A stretch of 64,000 bases of DNA from Ginglymostoma cirratum (taxonomy: Eukaryota). The translations under genes and the position numbers were made by a program. The notes under the pieces were generated by a model. That model saw only the letters and a program-made list of their open reading frames with translations, did not search any database and was not told the DNA's origin. Shown here piece after piece: positions 2,489 through 63,075 of this stretch (position 1 is the first letter of the stretch; every line of letters starts with the position of its first letter). The DNA is taken from the NCBI GenBank assembly GCA_024137785.1, contig JAHRHZ010000111.1, positions 27,226,991 through 27,290,990 on the forward strand. Reading direction: 5' to 3'.

Positions 2489-3049
2489 TCAGAGATAAAA
2501 GGTACTGCAGATGCTGGAGAATCCGAGATAACAATCATGGGGCTGGATGAACACAGCAGGTCAAGCAGCATCATAGGAGCAGGAAAACTTGACGTTTCGG
2601 GCCGAAACCCTTCATCAGAAANNNNNNNNNNNNNNNNNNNNNNNNNNNNNNNNNNNNNNNNNNNNNNNNNNNNNNNNNNNNNNNNNNNNNNNNNNNNNNN
2701 NNNNNNNNNNNNNNNNNNNNNNNNNNNNNNNNNNNNNNNNNNNNNNNNNNNNNNNNNNNNNNNNNNNNNNNNNNNNNNNNNNNNNNNNNNNNNNNNNNNN
2801 NNNNNNNNNNNNNNNNNNNNNNNNNNNNNNNNNNNNNNNNNNNNNNNNNNNNNNNNNNNNNNNNNNNNNNNNNNNNNNNNNNNNNNNNNNNNNNNNNNNN
2901 NNNNNNNNNNNNNNNNNNNNNNNNNNNNNNNNNNNNNNNNNNNNNNNNNNNNNNNNNNNNNNNNNNNNNNNNNNNNNNNNNNNNNNNNNNNNNNNNNNNN
3001 NNNNNNNNNNNNNNNNNNNNNTTCCTGCTCCTATGATGCTGCTTGACCT
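2489..3049. mobile_element. Fold-back Penelope insertion (family A) with a 400-N assembly gap inside
   Basis: Inverted pLTR arms on both sides of the gap (2622-3021); TSD gctggaagaacagta 2474-2488 / 3050-3064. Confidence 0.85.
2588..2621 (-). ncRNA. Minimal type I hammerhead ribozyme in Penelope pLTR
   Basis: Minus strand ttt-CTGATGA-a-GGGT-ttcg-GCCC-GAAA-cGTC-aag: complete core, stem II, palindromic ACGT stem III. Confidence 0.75.
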
Positions 3050-4694: not shown

Positions 4695-4776
4695 TGAAGG
4701 CCCGAAACGTCAGATTTCCTGCTCCTCTGATGCTGCTTGGCCTGCTGTGTTCATCCAGCTCCACACCTTGTCATCT
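4695..4776 (+). mobile_element. Very short family A pLTR insertion beginning inside the hammerhead
   Basis: aggcccgaaacgtcag...caccttgtcatct; TSD ctgtggtct 4686-4694 / 4777-4785. Confidence 0.75.
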
Positions 4777-4944
4777 CTGTGGTCTGACTACTGCTTTGCA
4801 TAGTTTTAGCAAAGCTTCCCACTTTTATTTTCCATTCCCTTTGAAATAAAGGCCAACATTCCATTTGCTTTCCATATTACCCATTGAACTTGGATACTAA
4901 CTTTTAGTTCAAGGACAAAGACTTCCAAATCCCTGTGTTCCTTA

Positions 4945-5138
4945 ATAAAAACTAAAAGAACTGCAGACGCTGTAAATCAGGAACAAAAACAAAAAGTTGC
5001 TGGAGAAGCTCAGCAGGTCTGGCAGCATCTGTGAAGGAAAAAACGGAGTTAACGTTTCGGGTCCGGTGACCCTTCCTCAGAACATGTCACCGGACCCGAA
5101 ACGTTAACTCTGTTTTTTCCTTCACAGATGCTGCCAGG
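4945..5138. mobile_element. Fold-back Penelope pLTR insertion (family B)
   Basis: Near-perfect inverted repeat centred at about 5083; TSD ccctgtgttcctta 4931-4944 / 5139-5152. Confidence 0.85.
5047..5083 (-). ncRNA. Minimal type I hammerhead ribozyme (family B)
   Basis: Minus strand gtt-CTGAGGA-a-GGGTC-accg-GACCC-GAAA-cGTT-aac: core, perfect 5-bp stem II, stem I gtt/aac. Confidence 0.75.
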
Positions 5139-6724
5139 CCCTGTGTTCCTTAGCTTTCCCCATTTAAATAATATTCAGCTCCTCTATTCTTCCTGCCAAA
5201 GTACATAACCTCACATTTCCCCACATTATATTCCATCTGTCAAGTTTTTGCTTATTCACTGAATCTATTTCCCTCTGCAGACTCATTGTGTCATCCTCAC
5301 CACTTGTCATCCATTCACAAACTTGGCTATCATACATTTACTTCCCTCATCCAAGTCAGTAACACATATTGTCAACTATTGTAGTCCCAGCACTGACCCC
5401 TGTGGCACACCATTACTTACAGGTTGCCATCCTGAAAATGCCCCCTTGCTGCTTCATTCATCCTAACTCTCTGTCTTCTTTAGATAGTCAATTCTCTGTT
5501 GATGCTAATATACGAACTCCAAAACTATGGCTGTTATCTTATTAAGTAGCTTAATGTGCGGTACCTTAACAATCTTCCTTTGAAAATCCTAATATATTAT
5601 ATCCACAGCTTCCCTTTTATCTATTATGCTTCTTACCTCCTCAAAGAATTCTGGTAAATATGTCAGATATGATTTCTCCTCATGGCGTGATGCTGACTCT
5701 GCTAGTCATATTATACATTCCTAAATGCTCTACTTTTACATCCTATGTAACATGCTCTAACATTTTCCCAATTACAGACATTAAGTTAACTGGACTAAGT
5801 TACATTTTTTTGCCTCCTTTCCTTTTTGAATAAAAGTGTTACGTAGTTTTCCAATCCCTGGGGACTTTCCCAGAATTGAAGTATTCTTGGAAGATTATGC
5901 TATCAGTGCATTCAGCACTGCTATAGCTACTTCCTTCAATATCCTCGGATGCATCCCATCAGGTCCAGGGAAACAAGTTTGGAATGCTCTCAGTGTCCTT
6001 TACTCTGAAGGCTGATGCAAATTATTTATTCAGTTTGTCTGCTATTTTGTGGTTCTCCATTATTATTTCCCAGCCTCATTCCATAATGGGCTTATGTTCA
6101 CTTTGGCTTCTCTCATTCTTTTTTTATCTGCCTGTAGAAGCTCTTACTGTCTATTTTGGTATTACACGCAAATATGTGTCCTCAATATTATTTTTTCTCT
6201 TTATTATTCTTTTGATCATCTTTTGTTGTCATTTCAAGTGGCAGTACTTTTCTGTCAGTGGTGCAGTGTTGCTCTCACCCTTCTCCCTGTGGCTCACCAT
6301 ACAGTGGGTCTGGGATATCTTAAAGCAGAAAATTAGAAAGAAAGGCTTAGGATGAGGCAGTGTGGCCAGCAAGTAGGATGTCCACAGTCAGATCACCCGG
6401 AACTTGCACTTGATGCCTGATAAATAGGGTGATGGTGGGATGGGAATTGAGTAAAGGCATAAAGTAGGAGCATACCACCATCCTGAATCATCCCATCAAT
6501 GGCAGGTACAACTGGCTCTTAGCACAGTCAGACTTATGTTACGGAGAATCATCTTCTTCCTAGGGCTGAGGAGATTTGGCTCTGCTCGCTGTGATTGTGT
6601 GTGAGTGAAGAATGGAAATGTTTGTTTTGTGATGTTTTTGGTGATATCATACCCTTACTGAATAAGCTGGCAGAGCATGGAGGCAGTGAGGCTGATATAA
6701 TTGGAAGAAGTGTCAGAACTGGAA

Positions 6725-16610: not shown

Positions 16611-17004
16611 GTGATTGAGAGTATTTTACAAAATAATTCCTTAAAGGTGGATACATATTATATCAATACAGGAAGTGCTTTCTGCCTCCATAGTTAATAG
16701 GTATCAATTCAGTAACTAGAGCTCCCTTCTGCATGCAGGATATACTTGGTTGTTGATACCTTTGACTGGGAGAAATTAACAAGTGTCATACTCCCCAGTG
16801 TCAATATTTCCCCTGATGAGCATAATCTTAAAGATTAAAAAAAATGACATTTGTATGATGCTATACATAATTTGCCGCAGTGCTTCACAGTAAATGAATA
16901 AAAGAATAGTCACTGTGGTGATGGACGAATTGTAGTTGCCAATTTACTCATAGCAAGCTCTGTAACTGCAATGAAGTAAGTAACCAGGTAAACAATTCTT
17001 GATG

Positions 17005-17126
17005 AGATAGTAGGAACTGGCGATGCTGGAGTCTGAGATAACAAGGTGGATGAACACAGCAGGCCAGGCAGCATCAGAGGAGCAGGAAAGCTGACGTTTT
17101 GGGTCTGGACCCTTCTTCAGAAAATG
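17005..17126 (-). mobile_element. Short family A pLTR insertion whose 5' end is at the hammerhead
   Basis: TSD ttcttgatg 16996-17004 / 17127-17135. Confidence 0.75.
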
Positions 17127-17240
17127 TTCTTGATGTCGGGATGAGAGATACATATTGACCAGGGCATTGAGAACTCCCCTATTCTTCTTGGAATAGGAAT
17201 CTTTTACATCCATGTGAGTGGGCAGGTGGATATCAGATTA

Positions 17241-17378
17241 GAGATAAAAGGTACTGCAGATGCTGGAGAATCCGAGACAACAAGCGTGGGGCTGGATGAA
17301 CACAGCAGGTCAAGCAGCATCATAGGAGCAGGAAAACTTTGTCAAGTTTCCCTGCCCCTATGATGCTGCTTGACCTGC
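17241..17378. mobile_element. Fold-back family A insertion inverted at the hammerhead cleavage site
   Basis: TSD tggatatcagatta 17227-17240 / 17379-17392; junction ggaaaactt-t-gtcaagtttcc. Confidence 0.85.
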
Positions 17379-17962
17379 TGGATATCAGATTAATTCCTCA
17401 CCCAAAGATGATACTCTGACAATACAGCTCTGTACTACAGTCAAATATCAAGCTTTTAAATGGGACCTAAACATCTTTATCGCTCAGAGGCAAGAAAGGG
17501 TCTGGAAGAGGCTGACACCTAACAGAGGTTGCAAGCATGCACAAAATTCCTCTCCCAACTACCAAATGATAGGTTTGACTTTCCCGGATAATGTTTACCA
17601 TCCTCTGGTTTATTGGCGATCTGGTAACCTCAGATTATAGGCTCCTCAGTCAATGCTTCTAATCTATAATGATGATATGTTAGAATAATTTTCTGAATCT
17701 GGCAATAGAGCCATGTTTACTGGCAGTTTAAATTACAAACTTTTGCATGTGGCGCATAATAATCCAAGCACTTAAATGAATGGCTGGAAAACCATATACG
17801 TAAAGTTTACATCTCTGAACTCTCTGAACTCATTACGAACATATTTCTATGAACATATTGTCACTTTCACCACCTATGCCTACTTATCCCACAACTCACT
17901 GTAATCCCTTCAATTTACTTTCTGACTCTGCAGCCCCAAAATGTTCTAGTCAATATACCCGG

Positions 17963-18520
17963 GGTACTGCGTACAGTTTTGGTCTCCTTACTTGAGAAAG
18001 GACATGCTGGCACTGGAGGGGGTGCAGAGGGGGTTCACTAGGTTGATTCCGGAGTTGACAGGGTTGGCTTACGAGGAGAGACTGAGTAGACTGGGATTAT
18101 ATTCATTGGAATTTAGAAGATTTGGTGGGGTTATCTTATAGAAACATATAAAATTACGAAGGGAATATATAAGATAGAAGCAGGGAAGATGCTTCTACTG
18201 GTGGGTGAAACTAGAACAAGAGGACATAGCCTCCAAATTAGAGGGAGCAGAATTAGGACTGAACTGAGGAGGAACTTCTTTACCCAAAGGATTGTGAATC
18301 TGTGGAATTCCCTGCCCAGTGAAGTAGTTGAGGCTTCCTTATTGCATGTTTTTAAAGCTAAGATTGTTAATTTCTTGAACAGTAAAGGAATTAAGGGTTA
18401 TTGTGAGAGGGTGGGTGAGCGGAGCTGAGGCCATGAAAAGATCAGCCATGATCTTATTGAATGGCAGAGCGGGATCGAAGAGCCAGGTGGCCTACTCCTG
18501 CTCCTGGTTCTTATTTCTTG
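17963..18520 (+). mobile_element. CR1 LINE 3' end
   Basis: Peptide RTRGHSLQIRGSRIRTELRRNFFTQRIVNLWNSLP is the CR1 ORF2 C-terminus; tail ttcttatttcttg. Confidence 0.85.
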
Positions 18521-18678: not shown

Positions 18679-18815
18679 GAGATAACAAGCATGGGGCTGG
18701 ATGAGCACAGCAGGTCAAGCAGCATCATAGGAGCAGGAAAACTTGACGTTTTGGGCCTAGACCCTTCATCAGAAAAAAAAAAAAAATTTTTCTGATGAAA
18801 GGTCTAGGCCCGAAA
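18679..18815. mobile_element. Family A pLTR fold-back with back-to-back hammerhead cores joined by an A/T run
   Basis: gggcctagacccttcatcag-(a)n-ttttt-ctgatgaaaggtctaggcccgaaa. Confidence 0.7.
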
Positions 18816-18989
18816 AAAAACAGTTTAACTAGAAATAAACAATTAGAAACTGTCAACATATAACTCTATCAGTCAAAACTAACCCACTTGTAAAAGTCCT
18901 CCCATACACACACATGAGGGGAGGCAGAGATAGACACAAAAAACAGAGTGTTATGGGTGGAGAGAAAGGCAGGAAGGCAGTTCAGTAGT

Positions 18990-19127
18990 TCTGAAGAAGG
19001 GTCACCCGACACAAAACACTAACTCTGTTTTATTCTTCACAGATACTGCCAGACCTGCTGACCTTTTCCGGCAACTTCTGTTTTTGTTCCTGATTTACAG
19101 CATCCACAGTTCTTTCGGTTTTTATTT
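18990..19127 (+). mobile_element. Short family B pLTR insertion starting at the hammerhead
   Basis: TSD aggcagttcagtagt 18975-18989 / aggcagttcaatagt 19128-19142. Confidence 0.8.
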
Positions 19128-23299: not shown

Positions 23300-23475
23300 T
23301 ACCATTGCATAAATGCTGCCCTCTCCACACTTCACATCAGCTCTGATGAAGAATCATCTAGACTCGAACCATTAGCTTGCCTTCTCCTCATGGATGCTGC
23401 CTGACCCTTGATTTCCAGCATTTCTTTTTGTTTTCAGTACAGATTCCAGCATCTGCAATAATTTGCTCTTTCGTC
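23300..23475 (+). mobile_element. Old Penelope pLTR fragment with a degenerate hammerhead
   Basis: agct-CTGATGA-agaatcatctagactc-GAAC-cattagct; tail ttccagcatctgca. Confidence 0.6.
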
Positions 23476-24109: not shown

Positions 24110-24799
24110 GAGAGATAAAAGGTACTGCAGATGCTGGAGAATCCGAGATAACAAGCATGGGGCTGGATGAACACAGCAGGTCAAGCAGCATCATAGGAGC
24201 AGGAAAACTTGACATTTCGGGCCTAAACCCTTCATCAGAAATGGTGGAGGGGAAGAGGGTTCTGAAATAAATAGGGAGGGAGGGCCATCCTTGGCCTCCT
24301 GCAATGCCACAGTGATGCCACCCGAAGGCTGCAGGAACAGCAAATCATATTCAGCCTGGGAACCCTGCAGCCCAATGGCATCAATGTGGATTTCACAAGC
24401 TTCAAAATCTCCCCACCCCCAACCGCATCCCAAAACCAGCCCAGCTCATCTCCACCTCCCTAACCTGTTTTTCCTCGCACCTCAAGCCACACCCCCATCT
24501 CCTATCTACTAACATCATCCCGCCCCCTTGACCTGTCCGTCCTCCCTGGACTGACCTATCTCCTCCCTACCCCCCTACCTACACTCACCTTTACAAGCCT
24601 CTTCGACTTGTCTGCCTCCTCTCCACCTATCCTCTCCTCTATCCATCCTCTATCCACCTCCCCCTCTCTCCCTATTTATTTCAGAACCCTCTTCCCCTCC
24701 CCCATTTCTGATGAAGGGTCTAGGCCTGAAACGTCAAGTTTTCCTGCTCCTATGATGCTGCTTGACCTGCTGTCTTCATCCAGCCCCATGCTTGTTATC
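24110..24799. mobile_element. Fold-back Penelope insertion (family A) with GIY-YIG C-terminal remnant
   Basis: Inverted pLTR 24110-24280 versus 24660-24799; TSD gctgattctacat 24097-24109 / 24800-24812; hammerhead at 24704-24739. Confidence 0.9.
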
Positions 24800-27447
24800 G
24801 CTGATTCTACATTGCAAATGAAGGTGTTCTTTTGCGGGTATTTCTATATCAACCCCAAATAAATTTAGCTGAAGAACCCAGAAAATTTATGATCACACTC
24901 CAACTTATCAAGTTTTTGCAAAAACCAGAGCTTTTTCTGATGTGGCAGTAGGTTAAAAAGGGGTAAAAAGGAGTATGGTGTAAATGGTGTAAAACACAAT
25001 GAGTGGGATCTTTCATCAGAATTGGACTATAGAGCTAGAGGTGAACTGAGGATGGCTGGAATTTGCTTGCAGCTTCTCCCACTCTGCTGCTGTAACTTCA
25101 CTGGACGACCGTTGGAAACCTTCATTTACATCATTGTTTCTCATACATAGCTTTGTGCTACTGGAGTGAATATGGGAAAACTGGCCAGAGAAATTAGCAT
25201 GTCCAGTCAATAATGGTTAATTATCTCTTACATATCAGCAAAAAGTATTGAATTTTTTTCAAATTTCAAATTGTGGAAAGTAAATTTGAAAGTGTCATTT
25301 ATTATGTTCTCTTCCTTTTCAATAACATTTTATACTAAAATTATTCTTGTAACATTAAAGAACCTAAAACCAGGCTAATTGAGTTAAACTGCTACAAGAA
25401 ATCCAGGGCAAAGCTTTCCCTGTGCACTGTAATTAAGGTGCTTATACTTTCTTTACACATGTCAGACAGAGGAAATCTTTGTCCAAATACCATTTTTCTA
25501 AAAGAAAAGATATGAAGACAGGTTCTGGTCTAGTTTTACAGAATATATTAAACATGTCGCTGTATCAGTTTCTGCTAGGAAAAACATAAACAATCTTGAC
25601 ATGTAAGAATGAACTTTATTATGAGTGACAGTCTAGTGTTTTTCACAGCAGGTCTTTGATCTAACTCTATTTCATGGTGTGTCGATTCCACACACATTAT
25701 TTTCGCTTTCAGTTGGAGAAAGCTGAGTTTTTGATAGATCTGATATTTACTGTCAGAGGTGTGTATATCATGTGGACCTTTGTGTTGAATAGGAGCAGAT
25801 TGATAATTACCATCAAAATGGAGAAACAATAGCTGCAAGTGATGAGTGACTTGCCTGGAAAGCAAAGCTCACCAGAATTAATGCTATGGTCTCTTTCCTA
25901 GGAAAATGTCAGTGGACATATGGCAGGAAGTAAACTTAATATCATACATATGTTGGCTATCTTCCATTATCTAGCCTGAGTTAGGCAGGTGACTCAACTG
26001 CTTTGGGGGCCAGTGGTAAAGGGTAGCAAGGTGCAAAATGGACAGTAAAGTGCATAGATTTTTAGTCCTGTTCCACCCCATTTCTACCCAGCAAACAAGA
26101 GGTAAAAATTCCATCTTACCTTTCAATTATTTAGCCAATTCTATTTGGTTAAGATAACATATGGAATATGTTTCCATCTGGCACTTAGCAGACTGTCTCT
26201 AATAGATGACCTAATAACCATTTCATTGGATCATTTTAACACTTTCTAAGGGGTTATACAAATGTATAAATGTGATATTCAAGCAATTTCTCCTAATCTC
26301 TGCATTTGGCCGTGATTTTAATGGTAAGCACTCTCATTACAGATTCACTGAGCAGTAGAAATATTGGCCATCCCTGGAGCACAACCATTTTGCTGATGTC
26401 AAGAAACCTTCCAATTTCATTAGAATACATCAAAAATTAAAATGGACATAAATTGGCATAAATCAATGTAACCTATCTGTGCAAAAGGAGACGCTGATTC
26501 CACGTCAGCATATTTCTTCTTTGTGCCTCAAAATTTATCATTCATATGATTTAACCCCTATTAATGCACATAAATGATTCAGGAACTTGCAACCAGTGAA
26601 CCTTTTCAATTTTACATGTGATTTATATCATAAAGTGCATTAAAATAAAATTTTAAAAATGCAGAGCAGATCTTAGTGAGGATAATTCTTTTTAAAAAAG
26701 ACTTGAAAAAACTGCAATTAAAGACCACCCGAGAAATGACATTTTAAAAATCTGGTTGAGAGATTCAGGACAGACGAATACAATCACAGAGCCCTTGTAT
26801 TTACAGGTGAGGGTAACTGCCAGTTTTGAGGGTGGAGATTTGCTCAGCTGGAAGGATTGACGAATCAGATATTTTAAAAAGTTATGGAGGTTTGGACATA
26901 TTGCAATTATGAATGAAACTCAAATATGCTTCCGATTGTATCATTAGGCTTTTAATTAAAAAATTAAAAGATTTCAGAAGTTAGATGCCGATCTGAGGGC
27001 ATATGCAAGCAAAAGGCTTGGTCATTATTTTCTTACTCAGTTGTAAAAACCGTTAATTATTTATTTTGAATGACTTCTTAATTTTCTCTCTTGTTATGAA
27101 TAAACTGTTACTCCTCAAAGCTAAAGGGTATCACATGAGGCACTTTCTACTGTACACTCGCCATGATCTTGAAATGCTTACTGCTGCAAAAATCTCAGAA
27201 AGTGGGCAAATTCTCTGACTGCAGTCTGTGACCATTGCAGTGAAAATGAACATGACATTCAACTTTCATAATTTGACCTTAGTGCTTGAGACTTTCATGG
27301 ACTAAAGCTGGATTTCAAAAGGACTTACACATGGCAGTGATCACCTGTGAAGCACAGGAATCCCAAATGGAATGTAAAAAAAATGGCTGCATCAGAATTA
27401 TTATTATAATCAAGGAGCACTGAAACTCAGTGGGGTATCAAGAAATT

Positions 27448-33608: not shown

Positions 33609-34941
33609 AGACAACAGGAACTGCAGATGCTGGAGAATCCGAGATAACAATGTATAGAGCTGGATGAACACAGCAGGCCAAGCAGCATCATAGGAGCAGG
33701 AAACCTTGACGTTTCAGGCCTAGACCCTTCATCAGAAATGGGGGAGGGGAAGAGGGTTCTGAAATAAATAGGGAGAGAGGGGGAGGTGGATAGAAGATGG
33801 ATAGAGGAGAGGATAGGTGGAGAGGAGGCAGACAAGTCAAAGAGACATTGATGGAGCTAGTAAAGGTGAGTGTAGGTGGGGAGGTAGGGAGGAGATAGGT
33901 CAGTCCAGGGAGGACGGACAGGTCAAGGGGGTGGGATGAGGTTAGTAGGTAGGAGATGGGGGTGGGGCTTGAGGTGGGAGGAGGCGATAGGTGAGAGGAA
34001 GAACAGGTTAAGGAGGCGGGGACGAGCTGGGCTGGTTTTGGGATGAGGTAGGGGGAGGGGAGATTTTGAAGCTTGTGAAATCCACATTGATATCATTGGG
34101 CTGCAGGGTTCCCAGGCTGAATATGATTTGCTGTTCCTGCAGCCTTCGGGTGGCATCACTGTGGCATTGCAGGAGGCCCAGGATGGACATGTCGTCTGAG
34201 GAATGGGAGGGGGAGTTGAAATGGTTCGCAACTGGGAGGTGCAGTTGTTTATTGCGAACCGAGTGCAGGTGTCCTGCAAAGCGATCCCCAAGCCTCTGCC
34301 TGGTTTCCCCGATGTGGAGGAGGCCACAACAGGTACAGCGGATACAGTATACCACATTAGCAGATGTGCAGGTGAACATCTGCTTGATGTGGAAAGACTT
34401 CTTGGGGCCTGGAATGGGGATGAGGGGGGAGGTGTGGGGGCAGGTGTAGCACTTCCTGCGCAGTTGGGGACTGCTTTGCAGAACACCTGCAACACATTGG
34501 GTATCAATGTGGATTTCACAAGCTTCAAAATCTCCCCTCCCCCAACCGCATCCCAAAACCAGCCCAGCTCGTCCCTACCTCCCTAACCTGTTCTTCCTCT
34601 CACCTATCCCCTCCTCCCACCTCAAGCCCCACCCCCATCTCCTACCTACTAACCTCATCCCGCCCCCCTGACCTGTCCGTCCTCCCTGGACTGACCTATC
34701 TCCTCCCTACCTCCCCACCTACACTCACCTTTACTAGCTCCATCAACGTCTCTTTGACTTGTCTGTCTCCTCTCCACCTATCCTCTCCTCTATCCATCTT
34801 CTATCCACCTTCCCCTCTCTCCCTATTTATTTCAGAACCCTCTTCCCCTCCCCCATTTCTGATGAAGGGTCTAGGCCCGAAACGTCAAGATTTCCTGCAC
34901 CTATGGTGCTGCTTGGCCTGCTGTGTTCATCCAGCTCTACA
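33609..34941. mobile_element. Large young fold-back Penelope insertion (family A) with GIY-YIG region
   Basis: About 440-bp inverted arms; minus-strand TCTSANVVYCIRC..C.LLHIGETRQRLGDRFAGH; TSD ccctttataaatcat 33594-33608 / 34942-34956. Confidence 0.9.
34855..34890 (+). ncRNA. Minimal type I hammerhead ribozyme (family A)
   Basis: attt-CTGATGA-a-GGGT-ctag-GCCC-GAAA-cGTC-aag; mirror copy on the minus strand at about 33705-33740. Confidence 0.75.
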
Positions 34942-36199
34942 CCCTTTATAAATCATTCCTGTTTTTAACTATTGCTTCACTTATGGATCTCCCATTCATT
35001 TTCATCCACAGTTGTCTCTCCACTTTCCTCTCTTCTCAGATTCTTGTCTGCTTTGACTTCTACATTGCATCTTTATCTCATTAATTTTAGCTTCAGATGA
35101 GTTCTGGTGCTATAACCTTAGTTTGAATTATTTCTCTGGCCACGGATTTCCCTTACTGTAGCCATGCTTTGTGGTGTTTGCTTGAAATGGCAGCAACCCT
35201 TGCTCTAAGCTGCATGTACTTTCTTTAATTCTAGCATCCTCAGCCTGGGACTGTGCTGTTCGTGTTTTTTTTAAAGATTTCCCCTTGCCCTCCAAGAATT
35301 TCAAAATTTCTCATGGAGCCTGCAACATCCATTTGCTTTTTGTACATCTGGATCTCTAATGAGAGAGTTCTCCAGTTCATTGGTACTTGGTGCCACCTGT
35401 AACTGCCAGGAATGACCAGTGCACCAGCTCCATGTAGCTTCTAGCTCACACTTTTTTCTGCATTTTAACTTACTGAGATACTTTTTGTCTTGAGTGTAGA
35501 TTCTGCCTTAAAGAATATTGCTAGAGTATGCCCACTGCAGGCTGCTTGATTGTTCAGTCCCCTCTGCTGCTGACTGTCTGCCAGAATCATCCTTAAAGCT
35601 GTTACTGGAAATTACCTCTAGGTTCACTTCCAATCATTCTGTACAGAGAAATCAAATTCTAATCCTTACCCCTCCCTACCTTGTTGTACAGACATATGAT
35701 GCCAGCTTAAGGTGGGGAATACAGCTACTGCCATTCCCTTTCCTGATGGGGTCATCAGGGCCTCCTTGACCTAAAGATGTAGCGGAAAACCAAAGTATAA
35801 TCTCATGAGAAGAAGATCTTGTCTTAAATAAGATGTAGTCTATTGCATGATAGCAATCAGTGCAAGTTACATTAGTAAGACGTATGTACTTATGAAGGTG
35901 ATGAGGAGACAAGACTGTGAGTCTGTCTTCCTTAAGATCCAGAGTTGACCTGCCCTTCCCCATCCAAGTCATTATAGCATCATCAGATTGGATGCAGCTT
36001 AAAACAGCCTTCGACATTAGCCCTTTCAGGACCATTACCTTATGCAATGCAAAGTTTGCAATTCTCTGCAATAGCCTTGGATGTATTCTCAGCTTCCAAA
36101 TCTGCGTTAATCTTTTCTTTGCTTCATTGTTTGAAAACCCATCATCAGTTTCCACCCTGGGCTAAGTACTAAGTGACCCTACATCAAAATCATGAATGG

Positions 36200-36624: not shown

Positions 36625-38190
36625 CTCTGGGATTGATCAAGTGTATTCCAGGACAATGTAGGAAGCTGGCGAAGAAATTGTGGGGCCTGTGCAGAGATAT
36701 TTGAATCATTGACAGCCATAAATGAGGTCCTGGAAGACCAGGGGATAGCTAATGTCATGCCATTATTTCAGAAAGGCTGCAAGGAAAAGCCAGGGAAATA
36801 CAGACTGGTGAGCCTAACATCAATAGTGGGTGAGTTGTTGGAAGAAATTCTGAGAGACAGAATTTGCATACAAATGGAAAGACAAGGACTGATTCAGGAT
36901 TGTCAGCATGGCTTTGTGCATGGGAAATCGTGTCTCTCAAATTCGATTAAGTTTTTGTGAAGAGGTGAGCAAGAAGATGGATGAAGGCAGAGCGGTAGCT
37001 GTCATCCACATGGACTTTAGCAACGCCTTCAATAAGGTTCCATATGGTAGACTGGTTGGTAAAGTTAGATCATGTGGGATCCAGGGAGAGCTAGTCAATT
37101 GGATACAAAATTGGCTTGACGGTAGGAGACAGAGGGTGCTGGTAGATGGTTGTTGTTCAGCCTGGAGATCTGTGACCAGCAGAGTGCTACAGGGATTAGT
37201 GCTGGGTCCACTGTTGTTCATCATTTATCTAAACAATTTGGATGAGAATGTAGGAGGAAGGGTTAGTGAGCTTGTGGATGACACCAAAATTGATGGTATA
37301 GTGGACAATGAAGAGGATTATCTAAAAGTACAATGGGATCTTGATCAACTGGGCCAGTGGTGGGAGGAATGCCAGATGGAGTTTAATTCAGATAAATGCT
37401 ATGTGTTATATTTTGGTTAAAAAAAAACAGGGCAGCACTTAAACAGTTAATGGTTGGGCCCTGGGTAGTGTTGTCGAAAAGAGAGACCTTGGGGTGCAGG
37501 TACATAATTTCTTGAAAGTCACAGACAGACAGGGCAGTAAAGAAGGTATTTGGCATGCTTGCCTGCATTGAGAAGAACATTGAGTACAAGAATTGAGACA
37601 TCTTGTTACAGCAATACCAGACACTGGTAAGGCCACATTTGGAGTACTGCGTACAATTCTGTTCTCCCTGTTATAGGAAGAAGTTTAATGAACTGGAAAG
37701 GGTGAAAGAAGATTTACAAGTATGTTACCATGACTGGAAGTTTTGAGTTGTAAGGGGAGTCTGGATAAGCTGGGACATTTTCCCTTGGAGAGTAGGAGGC
37801 TGAGGGCGACCTTTTAAATGTTTATAAAATCATGAGGGGCATAGATAAGGTGAATAGCCAAAGTCTTTTCCCAGGGTAAGGGAGTCCAAAACTAGACAGC
37901 ATAGGTTTAAGGTGCGAGGGGAAAGATTTAAAATGGGCACGAGAGGCAACATTTGCACATAGAGGGTCGTGTGTACACAGAGCGATCTGCCAGAGAAAGT
38001 GGTAGAGGCGGGTAGAATTAGAACATTTAAAAGACATTTTGATAGGTACACGGGATAGGAAAGATTTAGAGAAGTATAGGCCAAACACAGGCAAACGGGA
38101 CGAGTTCTGTTTAAGAAACCTGGTCAGCATGGATGAGTTGGGCAGAAGGGCCTATTTCCTTGCTGTATGATTCATGATTCAATGACTCTG
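36625..38190 (+). mobile_element. CR1 LINE (RT domain to 3' tail), frameshifted
   Basis: Peptides PGKYRLVSLTS, QHGFVHGKSC, MDFSNAFNKVPY, QGLVLGPLLF, VDDTK; tail atgattc repeats. Confidence 0.9.
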
Positions 38191-42373: not shown

Positions 42374-45313
42374 CAGAAGTCACACGACACCAGGTTATAG
42401 TCTAACAGGTTTATTTGAAATCACAAGCTTTTGGAACAAAGCCCCTTTGTCAGGTGAAGTGAGAGAGAAGCGCACAGAACACAGAATTTATGGGCAGAGA
42501 GATCAAGGGCAGAGAGATCAAAAGGTCGTACAAATGGTGAGTGGAGTGTAGAAATCCATCATTAACTTGTCTGACTGTACACTTCAACCAGATGAAATTG
42601 AAGTTCTCAGCCGAGGGCTCGATTTCTGCCCCACTACCAAAATGGACCCCATTGGCCTGGGGCCGGACACAGAGGAATTCATCAAGTGAATGAGGTTCCG
42701 GGAATTCTTCCACAAACCCCAAGATATCAACAGCGAGCCCGATAAGACAACCAATGAATCAGAACAGTCGACAGAGAGATCCATGGTGCAGTGACCAAAG
42801 AAGAAGGAGTAGAGTTGGACGCTTCGGGAAGGCCGGTGCCCCAGGCTCAACAAGTATGCTGAAACCATCAGGAGATGCGTTCATGCCAGATTCATCAGCT
42901 GCGCTCACAAGGTAGTGCAGAGCGTCACCCAAGGACAATGCAACGCCATCCATGCTCTCAAGACCAATCGCAACATTGTCATCAAACCAGCTGACAAAAG
43001 AGGAGCCATTGTCATGCAGAATAGAACAGACTACTGCAAGGAAGTGTACTGACAGCTGAACAACCAGGAACACTACAGACAACTACCTGTCGATCTGACC
43101 AAAGAGCGCACCCGTCAACTCAACAGACTGATCAAGACCTTTGATCCAGACGTTCACAGTACCCTAAGCACTCTCATCCTGCATGCTTCTCGTGTGCGGG
43201 ACTTCTACTGCCTTCCAAACATACACAAAGCCAACACACCTAGACATGCCATCGTATCAGGTAATGGGACCCTGTGTGGGAACCTCTCTGATTATGTCAA
43301 GGGCATTTTGAAACCCATTGTACAAGGAACCCCCAGCTTTTTCGTGACACCACAGATTTCTTACAGAAACCCAACACCCATGGACCAGTTGAACCAGGAA
43401 CATTCCTCGTCACAATGGATTGTTTGGCCTTCTACACCAGCATACCCCATGACAACAGCATTGCTGCAACAGCCTCAGTACTCAATACCAACAACTGCCA
43501 ATTTCAAGACACCATCCGACACCTCCTCCGCTTCATCCTCAACCACAACATCTTCACCTTCAACAACCAGTTCTTCATCCAGACACACAACCGCCATGGG
43601 GACCAAATTTGCACCCCAATATGCCAACATTTTTATGAACAAGTTCGAGCAAGACTTCTTTACTGCACAGAATTTCCAACCAATGCTTTACACCAGAAAC
43701 ATTGACATTTAATTCCTTCGGACTCATGGCAAGGAATCACTGAAACAACGACATAGTAATATCAACAAGTTTCTTCCTACCATTAGACTTACCATGGACT
43801 ACTCTTCAGAATCAGTCTTGTTCTTGGACACACGCACCTCCATCCAGGACGGGCACCTCCATACCTCACTCTACCGCAAGCCCATGGATAAACTCATGAT
43901 GCTGCACTTCTCTAGCTTCCAGCCTAAACATATTAAAGACGTCATCCCCTACGGACAAGCCCTGCACATCCACAGGATCTGCTCAGATAAGGAGGAGCAC
44001 GACGGGCACCTAGAGATTTTGAAGGTTGCCCTCATAAGAACAGGATATGATGCTCAACTCATCGATCGCCAGTTCTGACATGCCACAGTGAAAAACAGCA
44101 ATGACCTCCTCAGAAGACAGACTCAGGACACGCCGACAGAGTACCCTTTATCACCCAGTACTTCCATGGAAAGGAGAGACTATGCCATGTTCTTTGCAGC
44201 CTTCAATATGTCATCGTTGATGACAAGCATCTCGCCCTGATCACCCCTTCGCCTCCATTTCTCCCCAACAAGCAACTGCCAAACTTTAAACGGACTATCA
44301 TTCGCAGCTAACTACCCAGTCTTCAGGACAAAATCGATCACAACAGGACACAACCCTGCCATGGCAATCTCTACAAGACATGACAGACCATCGACATGGA
44401 TACTACCATCACACGTGGGAACATCATCCACCACGTGATTACCTACACGGCAGATAATCATGTGATTCGGCCAATGTCGTCTATCTCATACGCTACAGCA
44501 TGGTAAATTGGTGAGACCATGCAGATGCTATGACAATGGATGAATGGACACCACACAACAATCGTCAGACAGCAATGTTCTCTCCCAGTCAGGGAACACT
44601 TTAGCGGTCAAGTCATTCAGCCTCTGATCTTCGAGTATGCGTCCACCAAGGTGGCCTTCAAGACACACACACAACAACACAGAATCGCCGAGCAGAAACT
44701 GATAGCCAAGTTCCATACCCATCAAGACGGCCTCAACCATGATCTTGGGTTCATGTCACATTGCATGTGACCCCACCACATTGTTCTACATCTGCAAAAT
44801 CTTCCTTATTCTCTTGTTGTGACACCATCACCTGGATAAATTGTTGTGATCTCTCTACCTTAATTAGTTTGTACAGTTTTGGATCACTTGTTACTTTGGT
44901 TAGACTCTCAGCATACGTCTCTTATACTTATCATGTTATTCCAGTTGTTTGGTTTGTCTCCAGCTCCACCTTATTTTTAATATTTTGTAATTATCTCTCT
45001 GCCTCATTTAATCAGATTGTAAATCATCCCTTCACTTGTTATTCAGCTGTTGACACTTTACTCACATTGTCTAACTTTTCTGATCACTTGCAGAGACTTA
45101 TTATTCGACAATCCACACACACCATTCGTATAATCTTTTGATCTCTCTGCCCATAAATTCTGTGTCTGTGTGCTTCTCTCTAACTTCACCTGACCAAGTG
45201 GCTATGCTCCGAAAGCTTGTGATTTCAAATAAACCTGTTGGGCTATAATCTGGTGTTGTGTAACTTCTGACTTTATCCATCCCAGTCCAACACTGGCACC
45301 TCTGCATCATTTC
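42374..45313 (+). mobile_element. Near full-length degraded Penelope-like retroelement (family C) with inverted 5' pLTR
   Basis: IKPADK, FYCLPNIHK, AMGTKFAPQYANIFM, YTRNIDI, LYRKP and GIY-YIG remnants; 42374-42540 is the inverse of 45120-45272; TSD ttaaaatagt 42364-42373 / 45314-45323. Confidence 0.9.
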
Positions 45314-45486: not shown

Positions 45487-45635
45487 GAGATAGTAGGAAC
45501 TGCAGATGCTGGAGAATCTGAGATAACAAGGTGTGGGGCTGGAGGGTCTAGGCCTGAAACATCAAGGTTTCCTGCTCCTATGATGCTGCTTGGCCTGCTG
45601 TGTTCAACCAGCTCTACACCTTGTTATCTCTATAC
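45487..45635. mobile_element. Short fold-back family A insertion inside a CR1 3' fragment
   Basis: TSD ttgaagggcta 45476-45486 / 45636-45646. Confidence 0.8.
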
Positions 45636-46139
45636 TTGAAGGGCTATGCAGCAAAGGCAAGGGAGTGAGACAAAATTGGATTTTTTTCTTTCATGAACTG
45701 AGGAGTCTATAGGCTGAATGGGCTCCTTGCATTCCTTATGATAGACCATTGTGGATTAGAATTTAATAGTAATTTGTAAATGTTTCTTAGGCTTATCTGA
45801 AGTTCATTTTTACTCGTGTTTCAGAAGTCCCATGAATGTTTTGTTGTAAATGGATTAAACAAATTGATAATAATCCCCACCTTGAGGAGCAAAAGATGAT
45901 TTGGAGGAGAGGTTGAACAGGGGACACATACATGCCCCTTCCCTTTTCATAGCAGTGTTGTTTTTGACATGTGTATGTCCCACCTCAGTGGAATTACATG
46001 ATAGTTAACATATTTTAATACAGGATGTGGAGGTACCAATGTTGGACTGGGTTAGGCAAGGTCAGAAGTCAGACGACACCAGGTTGTAGTCCAGGTTTAT
46101 TTTAATTCACAAGCTTCTGGAGTGTTGCCCCTTCATTCA

Positions 46140-46450
46140 GTCCAGCAAGTCCACGCCAACCCTCTGAACAGCATCCCACACAGACCCACGGTATCCCAAT
46201 GACTCTGCATTTCCCATTGCTCATCCACCTAGCCTGCAGATCATAGAACACTATGGGCAATTTAACACAGCAATCCACCTAACCTGCACATCATTGGATT
46301 GTGGGAGGAAACTGGAGCACCCAGAGGAAACCCACACAGACACGGGGAGAATGTGCAAACTCCACACTGACAGTCACCCGAGCTAGAATTGAACCCGGGT
46401 CCCAGATGCTGTGAGACAGCAGCGCTAATCACTGAGCCACCATGCTGCCC
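46140..46450 (-). mobile_element. HE1-like V-SINE, abutting a family C pLTR fragment (46022-46138)
   Basis: Minus-strand head gggcagcatggtggctcagtgattagc (A box) and ggttcaattc (B box); V-domain tgtggagtttgcacattctccccgtg. Confidence 0.85.
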
Positions 46451-49300: not shown

Positions 49301-49868
49301 AGATAACAAGGTGTACAGCTGGATGAACACAGCAGGCCAAGCAGCATCAGAAGAGCNNNNNNNNNNNNNNNNNNNNNNNNNNNNNNNNNNNNNNNNNNNN
49401 NNNNNNNNNNNNNNNNNNNNNNNNNNNNNNNNNNNNNNNNNNNNNNNNNNNNNNNNNNNNNNNNNNNNNNNNNNNNNNNNNNNNNNNNNNNNNNNNNNNN
49501 NNNNNNNNNNNNNNNNNNNNNNNNNNNNNNNNNNNNNNNNNNNNNNNNNNNNNNNNNNNNNNNNNNNNNNNNNNNNNNNNNNNNNNNNNNNNNNNNNNNN
49601 NNNNNNNNNNNNNNNNNNNNNNNNNNNNNNNNNNNNNNNNNNNNNNNNNNNNNNNNNNNNNNNNNNNNNNNNNNNNNNNNNNNNNNNNNNNNNNNNNNNN
49701 NNNNNNNNNNNNNNNNNNNNNNNNNNNNNNNNNNNNNNNNNNNNNNNNNNNNNNNNGCCGGAAACGTCAGCCTTCCTGCTCTTCTGATGCTGCTTGGCCT
49801 GCTGTGTTCATCCAGCTGTACACCTTGTTATCTCAGGTTCTTCAGCATCTGCAGTTCCTACTATCTCT
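49301..49868. mobile_element. Fold-back family A insertion with a 400-N gap inside
   Basis: Inverted arms around the gap 49357-49756; TSD gtgactattattg 49288-49300 / 49869-49881. Confidence 0.85.
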
Positions 49869-55639: not shown

Positions 55640-57886
55640 CACCAACAAGAACAAAGTTGCTGGAAAAGCTCAGCAGGTCTGGCAGCATCTGTGAAGGAAA
55701 AAACAGAGTTAACGTTTCGGGTCCGGTGACCCTTCCTCAGAACTGATGGTGGCTGGGAAAATGGCAGTTTATCTGAGGAAAAGGTAAGGGGGATGGGGTA
55801 GTGAGTAAATGATAGGATAGAGCCTAAAAAGAGACAAGAGCAGTTGAACAGACAAACAGTTGATAATTTTATTTTTCTGAAGAAAGGTCTAGGCCCGAAA
55901 CGTCAGCTTTCCTGCTCCTCTGATGCTGCTTGGCCTGCTGTGTTCATCCAGCTCTACAACTTGTTATCTAAGAGTTGATAATGATCAGGCTGGGAGGGTG
56001 AATAGCTGTTAATAGGGACTGTTAGTGACTAACAACGGTGGGTGTGTAATGGCAGGCTATGGGGTAACAAGGCCTGGTGTGTGGGGTGGGGGCCTGGGAC
56101 ATGGGAGAGCTTAGGCCCTAAAATTACTGAACTCGATATTGATTCTTTTTACACATCCATTCCTCACCAGGAGGGTCTTAGGGCTCTCCTCTTTTTCCTG
56201 GAGCAAAGTCCTGAACCGTCCCTACCCACCACCACCCCCCTCCACTTGGTCGACCTCGTCCTCACCATCAACAACTTCTCTTTTAACTCCTCAAAATTTT
56301 CTTCAGGTAAGAGGGGAGACCATGGGTACCCACATGGGCCCTAGTTATGCCTGTTTCATCATGGGGTACATGGAACATTCCTTGTTCCAGTCCTATTCCG
56401 GCCCCCACCCACAGCTCTTTCTCCAATATAGCGATGATATCATTGGTGTTGCTTCCCTCTCTCATCTGGAATTGGAAAACTTCATCAATTTCACCTCCAA
56501 TTTCCACCTCGCTCTCACTTTCACCTGGTCTATCTCTGACTCCTCCCTTCCCTTCTTCGACATTTCTGTTTCCATTTCTGGGGGTAATCTGGCCACTAAT
56601 ATCCGCTGCAAACCCACTGTCTCCCACAGCTACCTGGCCTATACACCCTCACACCCCACTTCTTGTAAAGACTCCACACTATTCTCTCATTTCCTCCGTC
56701 TCCGTCGTATATTTCAGATGAGGCCATCTTCAACAAGGGAGCCTCTGAAATGTCCACCTTCTTCCTCAACCGAGAATTCCCCAGCATCAATGTCAACAGG
56801 GCCCTCAATTAGGTCCAACCCATCTCCTGCACTTCCGGCCTCACCCCTTCTCTTCCCTCCCGCAACAACAATAGGGTTCCCCTTATCCTTACCCACCATC
56901 CCAACAGGGTCCATATCCAGAAGTCCATCAGACATCACTTCTGCCACTTCCAGCAAGATGCCACCACTAGACACATATTTCCATCCCCTCCCTTGCCCAC
57001 CTTCCACAGAGACCGTTCCCTCTGGGACACCCTGGTCCACACTTCCTTCACCCCCAACACATCCCCACAGCCCTACGGCACCTTTCCCTGTAACCGGCGA
57101 AGGTGCAACACCTGCCCATTTACCTCCTCCCTCCCCAGTATCCAAGGGTCCAAACATACCTTCCAGGTGAAGCAACACTTCACCTGCACTTCCCAGAATC
57201 TAGTCTACTGCATTCGCTGCTCAGAATGTGGTCTCCGCTACATTGAGGAAATGAAACATAGGCTGGGTGACCACTTTGCAGAACATCTACGTTCTGCTCA
57301 CAAAAAAGACCCTGAACTGCCTGTTGCCTGTCACTTTAACGCACCACCCTGCTCCCTGGCCAACATCTCTGTCTCTGGCTTGCTGCAGTGTTCCAGCAAA
57401 GCCCAACACAAGCTGGAGGAACGACACCTCATTTTCCACTTGGGGACCCTACAGCCCTCCGGACTCAATATTAAGTTCAATAATTTTAGGGCCTAAACTC
57501 TCCCTTGTCCCAGCCCCCTACCTCACACACCAGGCCTTGTTATCACATAGCCTGCCATTGCACACTAACTGTTGTTCGTCACTGACAGTCTCCATTAACA
57601 ACTACTCACCTTTCCAGCCTGATCGTTATCAACTCTTTGTCTGTCCAACCGTTCTTCTCTCTCTTTGGGCTCTATCCTATTGTTTTTTCCTTACCCCATC
57701 CCCCTCCCTTTTGTCTGCATATAAACTGACGTTTTCCCAGCCACCATCAGTTCTGAGGAAGGGTCACCGGATCTAGAACGTTAACTTTGTTTTCTCCTTC
57801 ACAGATGCTGCCAGATCTGCTGAGCTTTTCCAGCAACTTTGATTTTGTTCCTGATTTACAGCATCTGCAGTTCTTTCGGTTTTTAT
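55640..57886 (+). mobile_element. Penelope-like retroelement (family B), 5'-truncated with an inverted 3' copy
   Basis: RT motifs GETMGTHMGPSYA and LQYSDDII; GIY-YIG NLVYCIRCSECGLRYIEE..RLGDHFAEH; 55640-56130 is the inverse of 57480-57850; TSD caaggaaatcaataa 55625-55639 / 57887-57901; intact hammerhead on the minus strand at 55707-55745. Confidence 0.9.
55868..55972 (+). mobile_element. Short family A pLTR nested in the family B arm
   Basis: TSD agttgataat 55858-55867 / 55973-55982; begins just upstream of CTGAAGA. Confidence 0.8.
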
Positions 57887-60489: not shown

Positions 60490-60790
60490 TGGAAAATTAG
60501 TAAGATGTCAAGCTATATGGTGCCATCCAACAAGTACAGAAAGCCCCAAAACACTTTTCAGCCAATTAAGTACTCTTGAAGTATCGTGCTAAAAGAAAAA
60601 CAGAAAACAATTTACAATGCATCGCAAAAGACCAAGAAAATCAACGATCAGATAATTTGTTTGAGATATTGGTAAAGGCATAAATGTTGTCCAGGGCGCC
60701 AGAGAAAACCAACTGTGTTTCTTGAGTAGTGCGGTGGGAAATTTTAATTGTCAAGTTTTAAGTATAATCTTTCATCCGAGCGTGACCTGG
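60490..60790 (-). mobile_element. Deu-domain SINE body; its head resumes at about 61680-61790
   Basis: acttttcagccaattaagtactcttgaagt, gatcagataat; head gtgggatttgaactcacaacc. Confidence 0.55.
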
Positions 60791-60795
60791 CAGCA

Positions 60796-61227
60796 GCAGT
60801 GGGCGGTGAGAGTGGGGTTGGTGAGGAGGCAGTGGGTGGTGAGAGGGGGGCCAGTGAGGGGGCAGTGGGCGGTGAGAGGGGGGCCGGTGAGGGGGCAGTG
60901 GATGGTGAGAGTGGGGCCAGTGAGGGTGCAGTGGATGGTGAGAGTGGGGCCGGTGAGGAGGCAGTGGGTGGTGAGAGGGGGGCCGGTGAGGAGGCAGTGG
61001 GTGGTGAAAGGGGGGCTGTTGAGGGGGCAGTGGGTGGTGAGAGGGGGGCCAGTGAGGGGGCAGAGGGCGGTGAGAGGAGGTCGGTGAGGGGGCAGTTGGC
61101 GGTGAGAGTGGGGCTGGTGAGGGGGCAGTGGGCGGTGAGAGCGGAGTCGGTAAGGGGGCAGTGGGCGGTGAGAGTGGGGCTGGTGAGGGGGCAGTGGGCG
61201 GTGAGAGTGGGGCTGGTGAGGGGGCAG
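60796..61227 (+). repeat. 33-bp G-rich minisatellite, about 13 copies
   Basis: Unit GCAGTGGGCGGTGAGAGTGGGGCTGGTGAGGGG; period 33 counted directly (one 32-bp unit). Confidence 0.95.
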
Positions 61228-63075
61228 CGACCGTCTGGATGTCCTAGCGACTGGAGTGGCACCTGCATGATGTGGAGATGGGACCTGGGACTCTGAGACC
61301 TGGACTTTTCTTACTTACCTTTTGGTTGTTAACATCTTGTAATTCTGGTTTTTGTACTCAAGTGGGTGTCAGTGAACGGCGACTTTGTGCACTTTTTGGT
61401 GTACTTATGTATTCCTGTACTTAGCACATGTGACACATAAATAAATCTATATGACAATGCAACTAGACTACATCCATGGTGAGAGAAAAGGCACTAAAGT
61501 TTTAGGTTGATGATCCTTTGCTGTTTCTGTCTCCATAGATACAGCCAGGCCAGCTAAACATTGCCAGCATTTTCTATTTTTATTTCAGATTTTCAGCATC
61601 TGCCATATTTTGCTGTTGGATGACATAAGAACATAAGAACTAGGAGCAGGAGTAGGCCGTCCGGCCCTTCTGCTGTATTCTGTCAGAACTGTACTGAAAC
61701 ATTAGTGGAGATTATATGCCGAAGTTTCTAGAGTGGGATTTGAACTCACAACCTTTGGATTCAGAGGCACGACTGCCAAACTGGTCAAGAGTTCTATTTA
61801 CATTGACATGAATATCAGCCGGCAGGATGTGGATTGCTTTCTTTGAATTCAGGTTTTCAGGGTGTCCTGGATCCTTTTGTGTCATTTCGAGCAACCGAGG
61901 CTGTTTTGGACCTATGCTGTTATCAGCAAAGAGCTGAACTCTGAAAATCAGTTTGAGTCCAGGTAAGTAGTGCAGAGGTTAATTAAACTGTCAGCACTCT
62001 CCAGCACCTTAATGCAGACATAGACTTTATTTTGACACATGTCCTACCTGCGCAGTGCGCAGATATTTGCATCACACCACTTCAACGACAAGCCTGAATA
62101 CGAGCAAGCATAACAACTTGTCAACCATACAAACCATGTCTGTTTTCAGCTGGAGAATGTAAACGTCCAGAATTATCACGGTATCCTTTGAGGTTATTCT
62201 TATCGACACACACTACACCTTTCAATTTTCTGTACGGGCAATGCCCATTTGCAATTAATTGCATTTAAGTTAGACCTCGATGATATTATCTAGATCTTTA
62301 CTCATCCAAAAAGAAAAGAGCGTCTGGGGCCACTGGAGTGCTCTGTTCATAGAAAAACATTTAAAATGCCTTATCATGTGATTTGTAGCAACATTTTGTG
62401 GAGATTTCGGAAGCTTTTAAATTATTTTTCATGGTGTGTTTCATTCTCGTTTCCGCTAATGTTTTACTACGCCTTTCATTCTAGCAGAGCTAGGGGATGG
62501 TCAGTTTCCTGGTGGGAAATACCCCTTAGGTTTTGCGGACGAAACAGAGATATGAAAAGTTATCGAACAGGTCAAGACGCACTGAAAGTAAATTATACCC
62601 ATTGGCTGACAGGCTGAATCCAAAACCAAATCCAAAACTTAAAAGTTGATTTATCAGTAGTTATTTTATCTCACCAGGAGCAACAATTTTATTCATTCCC
62701 CAGCAGGAGATTCTTCACTTACAGGAAATCTATGTTAATGATTAATATTCCAGTTGTACAATTTAACTCCCAGATGTCAGTTGGCAGAGCTGAAACCTGC
62801 AGCCTTTTCAAAGATATTCCTGCCCTGCCTTTGACATAAGACTGAGGAAGGCCAGAATATTAGACCAAGATCCTGATTCATCAGGACCATCCTCTTGCAA
62901 CTCTTCTTGGGATGTGGCAAGTGAGCTGTGTTGCCTCCAGCACCGTAATAAAATTCACCGTCTTGGAAGGCGTAATGGCCAAGGGGAGATTGTCCCAGGT
63001 CAGAGTTCTCATGGTGAGGTGGGGGAACGTGTAGAATGGAAGTAGTGACTGTCCTAAAATAGGGAAGGTAAATAG

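Follow-up and report, generated by a model that had tools for sequence, protein, structure and literature searches.

Short Penelope-like element copies in Ginglymostoma cirratum share a sharp 5' boundary just upstream of the hammerhead core

The inverted pair at 17241-17378 and its element families

The window analysed here is a stretch of 64,000 nucleotides of Ginglymostoma cirratum DNA (contig JAHRHZ010000111.1, positions 27,226,991 to 27,290,990) from a host genome of 4.36 Gb. At its positions 17241 to 17378 lies a 138-bp locus made of two end fragments of Penelope-like elements (PLEs) placed head-to-head within a 14-bp target-site duplication, the left copy of which (17227-17240, plus strand) is repeated perfectly on the right (17379-17392, plus strand). 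Element positions are numbered from the C of the CTGANGA ribozyme core (+1), the base after the predicted cut being +29 in families A and B and +31 in family C. The left arm (17241-17339, minus strand) is a family A PLE end that spans +29 to +128, includes a tail of ~33 nt (about 17241-17272) and is 98% identical to the family A reference; its 5' end lies at the predicted hammerhead cut. At the inversion joint (17340-17343), a single T is followed by the GTC (+26 to +28) of the right arm (17341-17378, plus strand), which runs from +26 to +65, shares TG at its 3' end with the target duplication and at +65 matches neither of the usual reverse transcriptase (RT) starts. The original prediction had described the left arm as ending at 17339, at the cut, and the right arm as beginning with GTC, and both points are borne out.

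The joint itself is ambiguous between a decayed fold-back on the ACGT palindrome and an end at the cut that was joined to another cDNA, and the right arm may have arisen by snap-back copying of the left. Across the genome, the search for joints where family A arms meet near the cut gave 35 rows, five of them apparently duplicates ~430 nt apart; 26 are ACGT-palindrome fold-backs or decayed forms of these, one with a centre that closely resembles the focal joint, and 9 have both arms at the cut. In a wider genome search, which gave 372 arm joints, the microhomologies were diverse among the first 50 listed.

Subfamilies A, A2 and B have one 3' UTR in common, and family C is separate. The layout is the same throughout: the UTR is followed by a 4-nt helix I strand, CTGANGA, helix II, GAAA, an ACGT palindrome, NUH and ~65 nt, after which come a first 3' end at ~+94, a tail of ~33 nt and a second 3' end at ~+128 (+113 to +120 by alignment in family C). 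The features of a minimal type I hammerhead (CUGANGA, helix II, GAAA, a palindromic helix III, NUH and a short helix I) are complete in the family references; Rfam gave no hammerhead match at E<=1, only 9 weak matches of hairpin type, and minimum free energy folding and cofolding did not return a hammerhead fold. A short helix I, an extra base before helix II and an ACGT palindrome in place of helix III, in thousands of dispersed single motifs and opposite-strand pairs, are also features of the minimal type I hammerheads described for metazoan PLEs in the accessible text of PMC4209133.

Family C copies contain RT motifs and then a GIY-YIG-like domain in one ORF. The Pfam GIY-YIG model matched family C at E 0.01, below the cut-off, and none of six decayed fragments from the window matched Pfam; the top matches of a relative elsewhere in the genome (copy L165) were GIY-YIG/HTH_animal clusters at 0.96-0.97, and endonuclease remnants of families A and B were matched by tblastn. 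The CX2-5CxxC linker, a feature of Neptune and Nematis, lies between RT and endonuclease both in L165 and at 56813-57496 of the window. Family C has a pLTR at both ends, and its tail runs into the 5' body. As far as the accessible parts of PMC8557442 and PMC3846280 go, units of endonuclease-bearing PLEs have a pLTR, an adjacent inverted 5'-truncated copy and a 30-40-bp tail at one end; here, a one-sided tail of 30-40 bp together with an inverted 5'-truncated arm occurs in 35 of 37 pairs. The published Penelope/Poseidon, Neptune and Nematis units, to the extent that their descriptions were available, are also alike in having RT before GIY-YIG, a ribozyme in the pLTR, head-to-head arms, target duplications of ~7-15 bp and heavy 5' truncation. 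The short copies are best explained as 5'-truncated insertions of endonuclease-bearing Penelope-like retrotransposons, and the earlier attribution of these copies to a PLE RT stands.

Among the 25 PLE-end arms in the window (against ~286 per Mb in the genome sample described below), several end just before the core. These are a short tailed copy with its 5' end at -3 (17004-17123, minus strand), a family C short copy ending at -4 (18987-19111, plus strand) and, within 18679-18815, a tail-less arm ending at -3 (18679-18775, minus strand) that is linked by an A/T-run joint to a 29-nt inverted stub (18787-18815). A family C head-to-head pair (4959-5140) has its ends at -3 (5083) and +11 (5086), another pair (1780-1953) at +1 (1857) and +19 (1859), a third (45487-45630) at +72 (45543) and +5 (45540), and a short copy (4698-4777, plus strand) ends at +15. 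At 55644-55969, a family C arm (minus strand, reaching -128) adjoins a family B arm that starts from -3 (55874); the family B short copy against the family C arm is either a nested insertion or a cross-family joint. Nine further breakpoints had been placed within or just 5' of the ribozyme: seven do map to -4 to +19, but 45543 lies at +72 and 46138 belongs to another, degenerate family. Longer copies comprise a family A inverted insertion with both arms through the ribozyme and the tailed arm reaching -46 (24111-24811), a long inverted insertion of family A2 that retains GIY-YIG remnants and has both arms through the ribozyme (33609-34943), and a 5'-truncated family C copy (56115-57872, plus strand) with the C-terminal part of the RT, the Cys linker, the GIY-YIG-like domain, 3' UTR, ribozyme and tail.

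Degenerate repeats with hammerhead-like cores beyond families A, B and C lie at 46050-46140 (minus strand) and 23340-23450 (plus strand). Two assembly gaps of 400 N (2622-3021 and 49357-49756) each fall between inverted PLE arms, and similar gaps, with duplicated hairpins ~430 nt apart, recur across the genome; because gaps are often found at hairpin joints, hairpins are mis-assembled and tight pairs are under-counted. Further RT-like frame fragments at 43053-44078, with no Pfam match, apparently belong to another PLE lineage, the LINE-like RT fragments at 17960-18520 and 36637-37420 are, judging by their motifs, what we take to be CR1/L2 type, and a G-rich tandem repeat with units of ~33 nt (60744-61314) opens frames on both strands.

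Position of the 5' ends

To map 5' ends we sampled 1.6 Mb of the genome as 39 blocks picked by coordinate, with 1,045,762 readable bases. After removal of 37 arms below 82% identity and 27 cut by a gap or block edge, 157 A/B and 78 C arms were kept from 299. In this 1.05-Mb sample, 37 of the 157 A/B arms and 32 of the 78 C arms have their 5' end at -6 to -1. The per-base end rate in this peak is 0.083 (A/B) and 0.185 (C), compared with 0.013 and 0.014 within the ribozyme and 0.002-0.005 far upstream, which amounts to 10.9 and 21.3 times the rate over +1 to +60 and 34 and 30 times the upstream rate. A constant truncation rate predicts 3.4 ends at -6 to -1 per family, and the 37 of 90 in A/B and 32 of 43 in C observed among arms at risk lie far above it (p about 1e-28 and 1e-26). 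The breakpoints, as the original prediction had it, do not follow a smooth truncation curve; the peak that it placed at the cut, on the other hand, lies ~33 nt upstream of it.

Ends at -6 to -1 occur in 11 of 65 (A/B) and 12 of 28 (C) tailed arms and in 22 of 85 and 19 of 47 tail-less arms. Since the peak is present in tailed and tail-less arms alike, and at the same base, it is not set by cDNA length, and length-limited synthesis was rejected as its cause. Exact patterns requiring non-consensus bases upstream gave genome-wide counts for subfamilies A and A2 of 9,717 ends at -3, 5,142 at -4 and 3,678 at -5, with 38,694 copies reading through the boundary; family A alone has 2,611 ends at -4, and family C has 3,377 there. 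A sharp boundary 3-5 nt upstream of the core is shared by thousands of short copies, and two families, although divergent, have it in the same register.

The architecture, the minimal ribozyme and internal priming are already published, as the accessible portions of the literature make clear. A base-exact 5' boundary is not given in the available text of PMC8557442 and PMC3846280, and a search that covered subscription journals thinly found no published 5' peak at helix I and no pairing statistic of the kind given below, although Fig. S2 of PMC11167929, of which part was accessible, plots the ends of genomic insertions and could show the boundary. Inverted and tandem end formation in PLEs and the role of the hammerhead are described as open questions in the accessible text of PMC8557442 and PMC11167929.

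The boundary as the probable end of a template RNA

The concentration of 5' ends 3-5 nt before the core likely arises because the element RNA begins there and the RT runs off its end. The transcription start would be the initiator-like CA with which helix I opens, at -5/-4. Such an RNA would have a copy of the ribozyme and its downstream sequence at either end, 5' and 3', and the element protein would use two internal priming sites for cDNA, +128 and +94, each serving one nicked target strand. If the 5' copy is used, both cDNAs would run off after 100-130 nt, often with an added A or a repeat copy of the final few bases, and a run-off cDNA would give a solo copy when joined to the target and a head-to-head pair when joined to its partner. 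Trimming and microhomology would spread some ends into the ribozyme, the focal locus being one such head-to-head pair after trimming; use of the 3' copy would give long copies, and a minority of templates would likely be ribozyme-cut.

Copies that bear the start of the reading frame are informative here. An upstream walk in family C met copies in which the ribozyme and tail continue into a common 5' body with a reading frame. Of the 30 best matches to this body, one was mis-aligned and dropped and one is the query itself (n = 29); 10 of the 29 begin at -7 to -2 (p 1.5e-6), 8 start further in and 11 further up, and 5 of these ORF-bearing copies among the best matches have an adjacent inverted arm. 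Since 10 of the 29 share it, the boundary behaves as the 5' end of the element RNA. The 11 copies that extend beyond it, in turn, require that the RNA was longer, that the RT jumped templates or that a circle was involved, and count against the run-off reading. No shared sequence past the tail was found among 114 sampled tailed arms. In the Penelope element of Drosophila virilis, transcription begins further upstream, by 46 nt plus a 75-nt intron, and it is the intron end that falls on helix I; the placement of the boundary is therefore not universal. An origin of the boundary as a splice acceptor was rejected for the families studied here, as many family C copies keep the AG of the CAG before -2, family A lacks an AG at that place, and the copies show no upstream exon in common.

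The initiator consensus is YYANWYY, and both families fit it with the A at -4. In subfamilies A and A2, a G precedes the A at -4 in 64 of 100 copies among the matches listed, by our own tally, against a background of 28.5%, and precedes the base at -5 in 46 of 100 among the matches listed against 31.5%; of 12 solo copies, 8 likewise have a G ahead of the -4 A (p 0.007). The signal is weak in family C (35 of 100 among the matches listed against 26.7%, p 0.04), and at inverted joints it is confounded because the G can derive from the partner arm or from re-copying of an end. In full-length L1 insertions, an extra G is a mark of cap copying according to the accessible part of PMC11702581, and the sequences here suggest a cap at the boundary. 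The centres of 50 tight hairpins among the matches listed (26 single C/G, 16 GC, 6 GG/CC and 2 A/T) include no CG, the centre expected from two blunt-joined cap copies, and were set aside as ambiguous proof of a cap.

The commonest end is not -4 but -3 with an extra T, a point against the run-off reading; the extra T could come from terminal addition by the RT or from slippage at the transcription start. At least one extra T is found in 82 of 100 copies ending at -3 among the matches listed, often as an A followed by four T. At the joints there is extra T, the final 7-9 bases recur as repeated copies and ends anneal with the target duplication, all of which is expected from polymerase run-off. 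Two or three copies of the 7-9 bases that end the template are present in L282, L288, L251 and sampled joints, and these repeats resemble the repeat addition of a telomerase-type RT at a template end.

An alternative that we regard as unlikely is that the RNA starts further upstream and is trimmed by a 5'-to-3' exonuclease as far as the protein-bound ribozyme, so that the template end is processed and uncapped. In both families the boundary does coincide with the edge of helix I on its 5' side, -3 with an extra T is the commonest end, the cap evidence is confounded, and the Anolis ribozyme is protein-assisted in the accessible text of PMC11167929. However, helix I has only about 2-4 bp, the initiator match is in register in both families, and solo copies show an excess of G ahead of the A. 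A stall of the RT, whether at the ribozyme fold or at the C-rich tract immediately before it, is quite improbable: A/B ends do fall within the motif 3-6 times oftener per base than upstream (0.013 vs 0.002-0.004), but a stall on the fold is expected at its 3' edge and the peak copies hold the whole motif, family C has no C-run, and 38,694 copies read through. The claim that stalling on the ribozyme defines the short unit is not supported, given the same intact motif. We give slightly less credence still to a fixed site, shortly before the core, at which the GIY-YIG endonuclease would cut a cDNA or pLTR intermediate; the Anolis enzyme favours 5'-ATT-3' in its own pLTR (PMC11167929, in the part available) and family A has ATT at -4, yet family C has AGTT there with an equally strong peak, and the untemplated and re-copied joint bases fit polymerase run-off.

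Run-off from an RNA end also bears on the head-to-head pairs. After one mixed-family joint and 8 with a gap or short 3' end were set aside from 46, tailed arms were paired with tail-less ones in 35 of 37 cases, against 18 expected if independent (p 5e-9). In the accessible text of PMC11167929, the RT of Anolis carolinensis Poseidon extends both target strands in vitro without requiring ribozyme cleavage, and it starts internally at two sites that flank the tail, ~100-130 nt past the core. The pairing fits these two starts with extension on two strands, and internal RT starts bounding the tail are common to Poseidon and the present families. Long copies make up 45 of 132 tail-less arms vs 18 of 93 tailed ones (p 0.016), which is expected if tail-less arms more often come from the 3' copy in the RNA. 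Inverted joints were attributed to self-priming on an antisense template in the available part of PMC3846280, whereas our data fit two sense-templated run-off cDNAs. The Poseidon ORF starts inside the ribozyme (PMC11167929, accessible text), whereas the family C frame opens downstream, near the tail.

In LTR elements, minus-strand strong-stop DNA is primed internally near the RNA 5' end and runs off at the start site. The run-off considered here would work in a similar way but differs in being target-primed and directly integrated, without a tRNA primer or integrase. A broader reading, possible but tentative, is that the genome holds a fossil map of the 5' ends of PLE template RNAs, with a major capped start at helix I and a minor end cut in vivo by the minimal PLE hammerhead, that a dimeric RNP primes the target strands at +128 and +94, and that the inverted pLTR is two strong-stop-like cDNAs placed head to head. 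The boundary offers a base-exact prediction of the RNA start and ties the one-sided tail to priming on two strands. For Poseidon, the accessible text of PMC11167929 gives no position for the RNA 5' end and reports that no reads ended at the cut. RNA reads from two runs, over one copy of family A and one ORF-bearing copy of family C, gave no pile-up of starts or ends; the deeper run is unstranded read-through, and joint RNA rows at 24736, a candidate for cleavage, are accounted for by a subfamily indel.

Ends at the predicted cut and the question of a separate unit

Exact cut-site ends are found in none of the 157 A/B arms and one of the 78 C arms sampled, and within 2 nt of the cut there are 6 (A/B) and 2 (C), at ratios of 1.2 and 0.69, that is, without enrichment. 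Genome-wide, family A has 144 ends at +22, 108 at +28, 398 at +29, 375 at +30 and 125 at +31. Once chance matches were allowed for and the indel-type share was removed (~23% at +29, 29% at +30 and 15% at +31, by our own tally among 100 matches listed), the corrected rates were 199, 188, 485, 492 and 212. This is a local excess of about 2.4-fold at the cut (+29/+30), with at least 20-fold fewer copies than in the upstream peak. Of the first 20 cut-site loci listed that are not of the indel type, 7 have an inverted arm and 1 lies at a gap; the remaining 12, an uncontrolled group, include 3 with a target duplication no more than 1 nt from the cut. Microhomology of AA or AG may explain part of the bump at +29/+30, and a small class of insertions starting at the cut probably exists. 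The boundary sets a rough ceiling for cut-RNA templates, a few percent of boundary-ended copies. Two of the cut-site copies (L265 and L268) have an identical 3' flank and probably lie at the same site in another repeat.

The original prediction went further and proposed that the ribozyme, through self-cleavage, defines a retrozyme-like non-autonomous unit of 100-150 nt that is mobilised in trans, a reading to which we assign very little probability. In its favour are the 2.4-fold local excess, the target duplications close to the cut at 3 of the 20 cut-site loci among the matches listed, and the 22 of 34 short A/B copies whose nearest neighbour is also short. Against it, the main boundary is 33 nt further upstream than the cut, ends at -5 to -3 outnumber those at the cut at least 20-fold, AA/AG microhomology can inflate the counts at +29/+30, and a stub with one ribozyme cannot release unit-length RNA. 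Head-to-tail unit arrays are absent from the 1.1 Mb covered, where 324 arms include 2 loose same-strand pairs, neither a unit repeat. By nearest neighbour, short and long copies interleave: the neighbour of a short copy is long in 12 of 34 cases in A/B and 13 of 32 in C, and among the long A/B copies 20 of 55 lie nearest to short ones. The mild short-short excess in A/B follows subfamily make-up, the short share being 20 of 56 in B vs 3 of 32 in A. With cut-site ends a minor class, the view that self-cleavage defines the unit is not supported; with no tandem arrays in the sequence covered, with short and long copies interleaved and with ORF-bearing copies sharing the boundary, the idea of a retrozyme-like family is not sustained, and the short copies are probably not a separate ribozyme-cut mini-element.

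Non-LTR retrozymes, in the accessible text of PMC7229834 and bioRxiv 10.64898/2026.07.22.740005, do resemble the present copies in having a type I ribozyme, pLTR-related sequence and a PLE as the likely mobiliser. They differ in forming head-to-tail units of 150-450 bp, mostly with canonical ribozymes, and in being expressed as circles, whereas the copies here are solo or head-to-head. The route set out in the available part of PMC4209133 likewise passes through cleavage and circles, while here the cut marks a small minority of insertion ends. Abundant ribozyme-bearing repeats of 100-130 bp need not be retrozymes.
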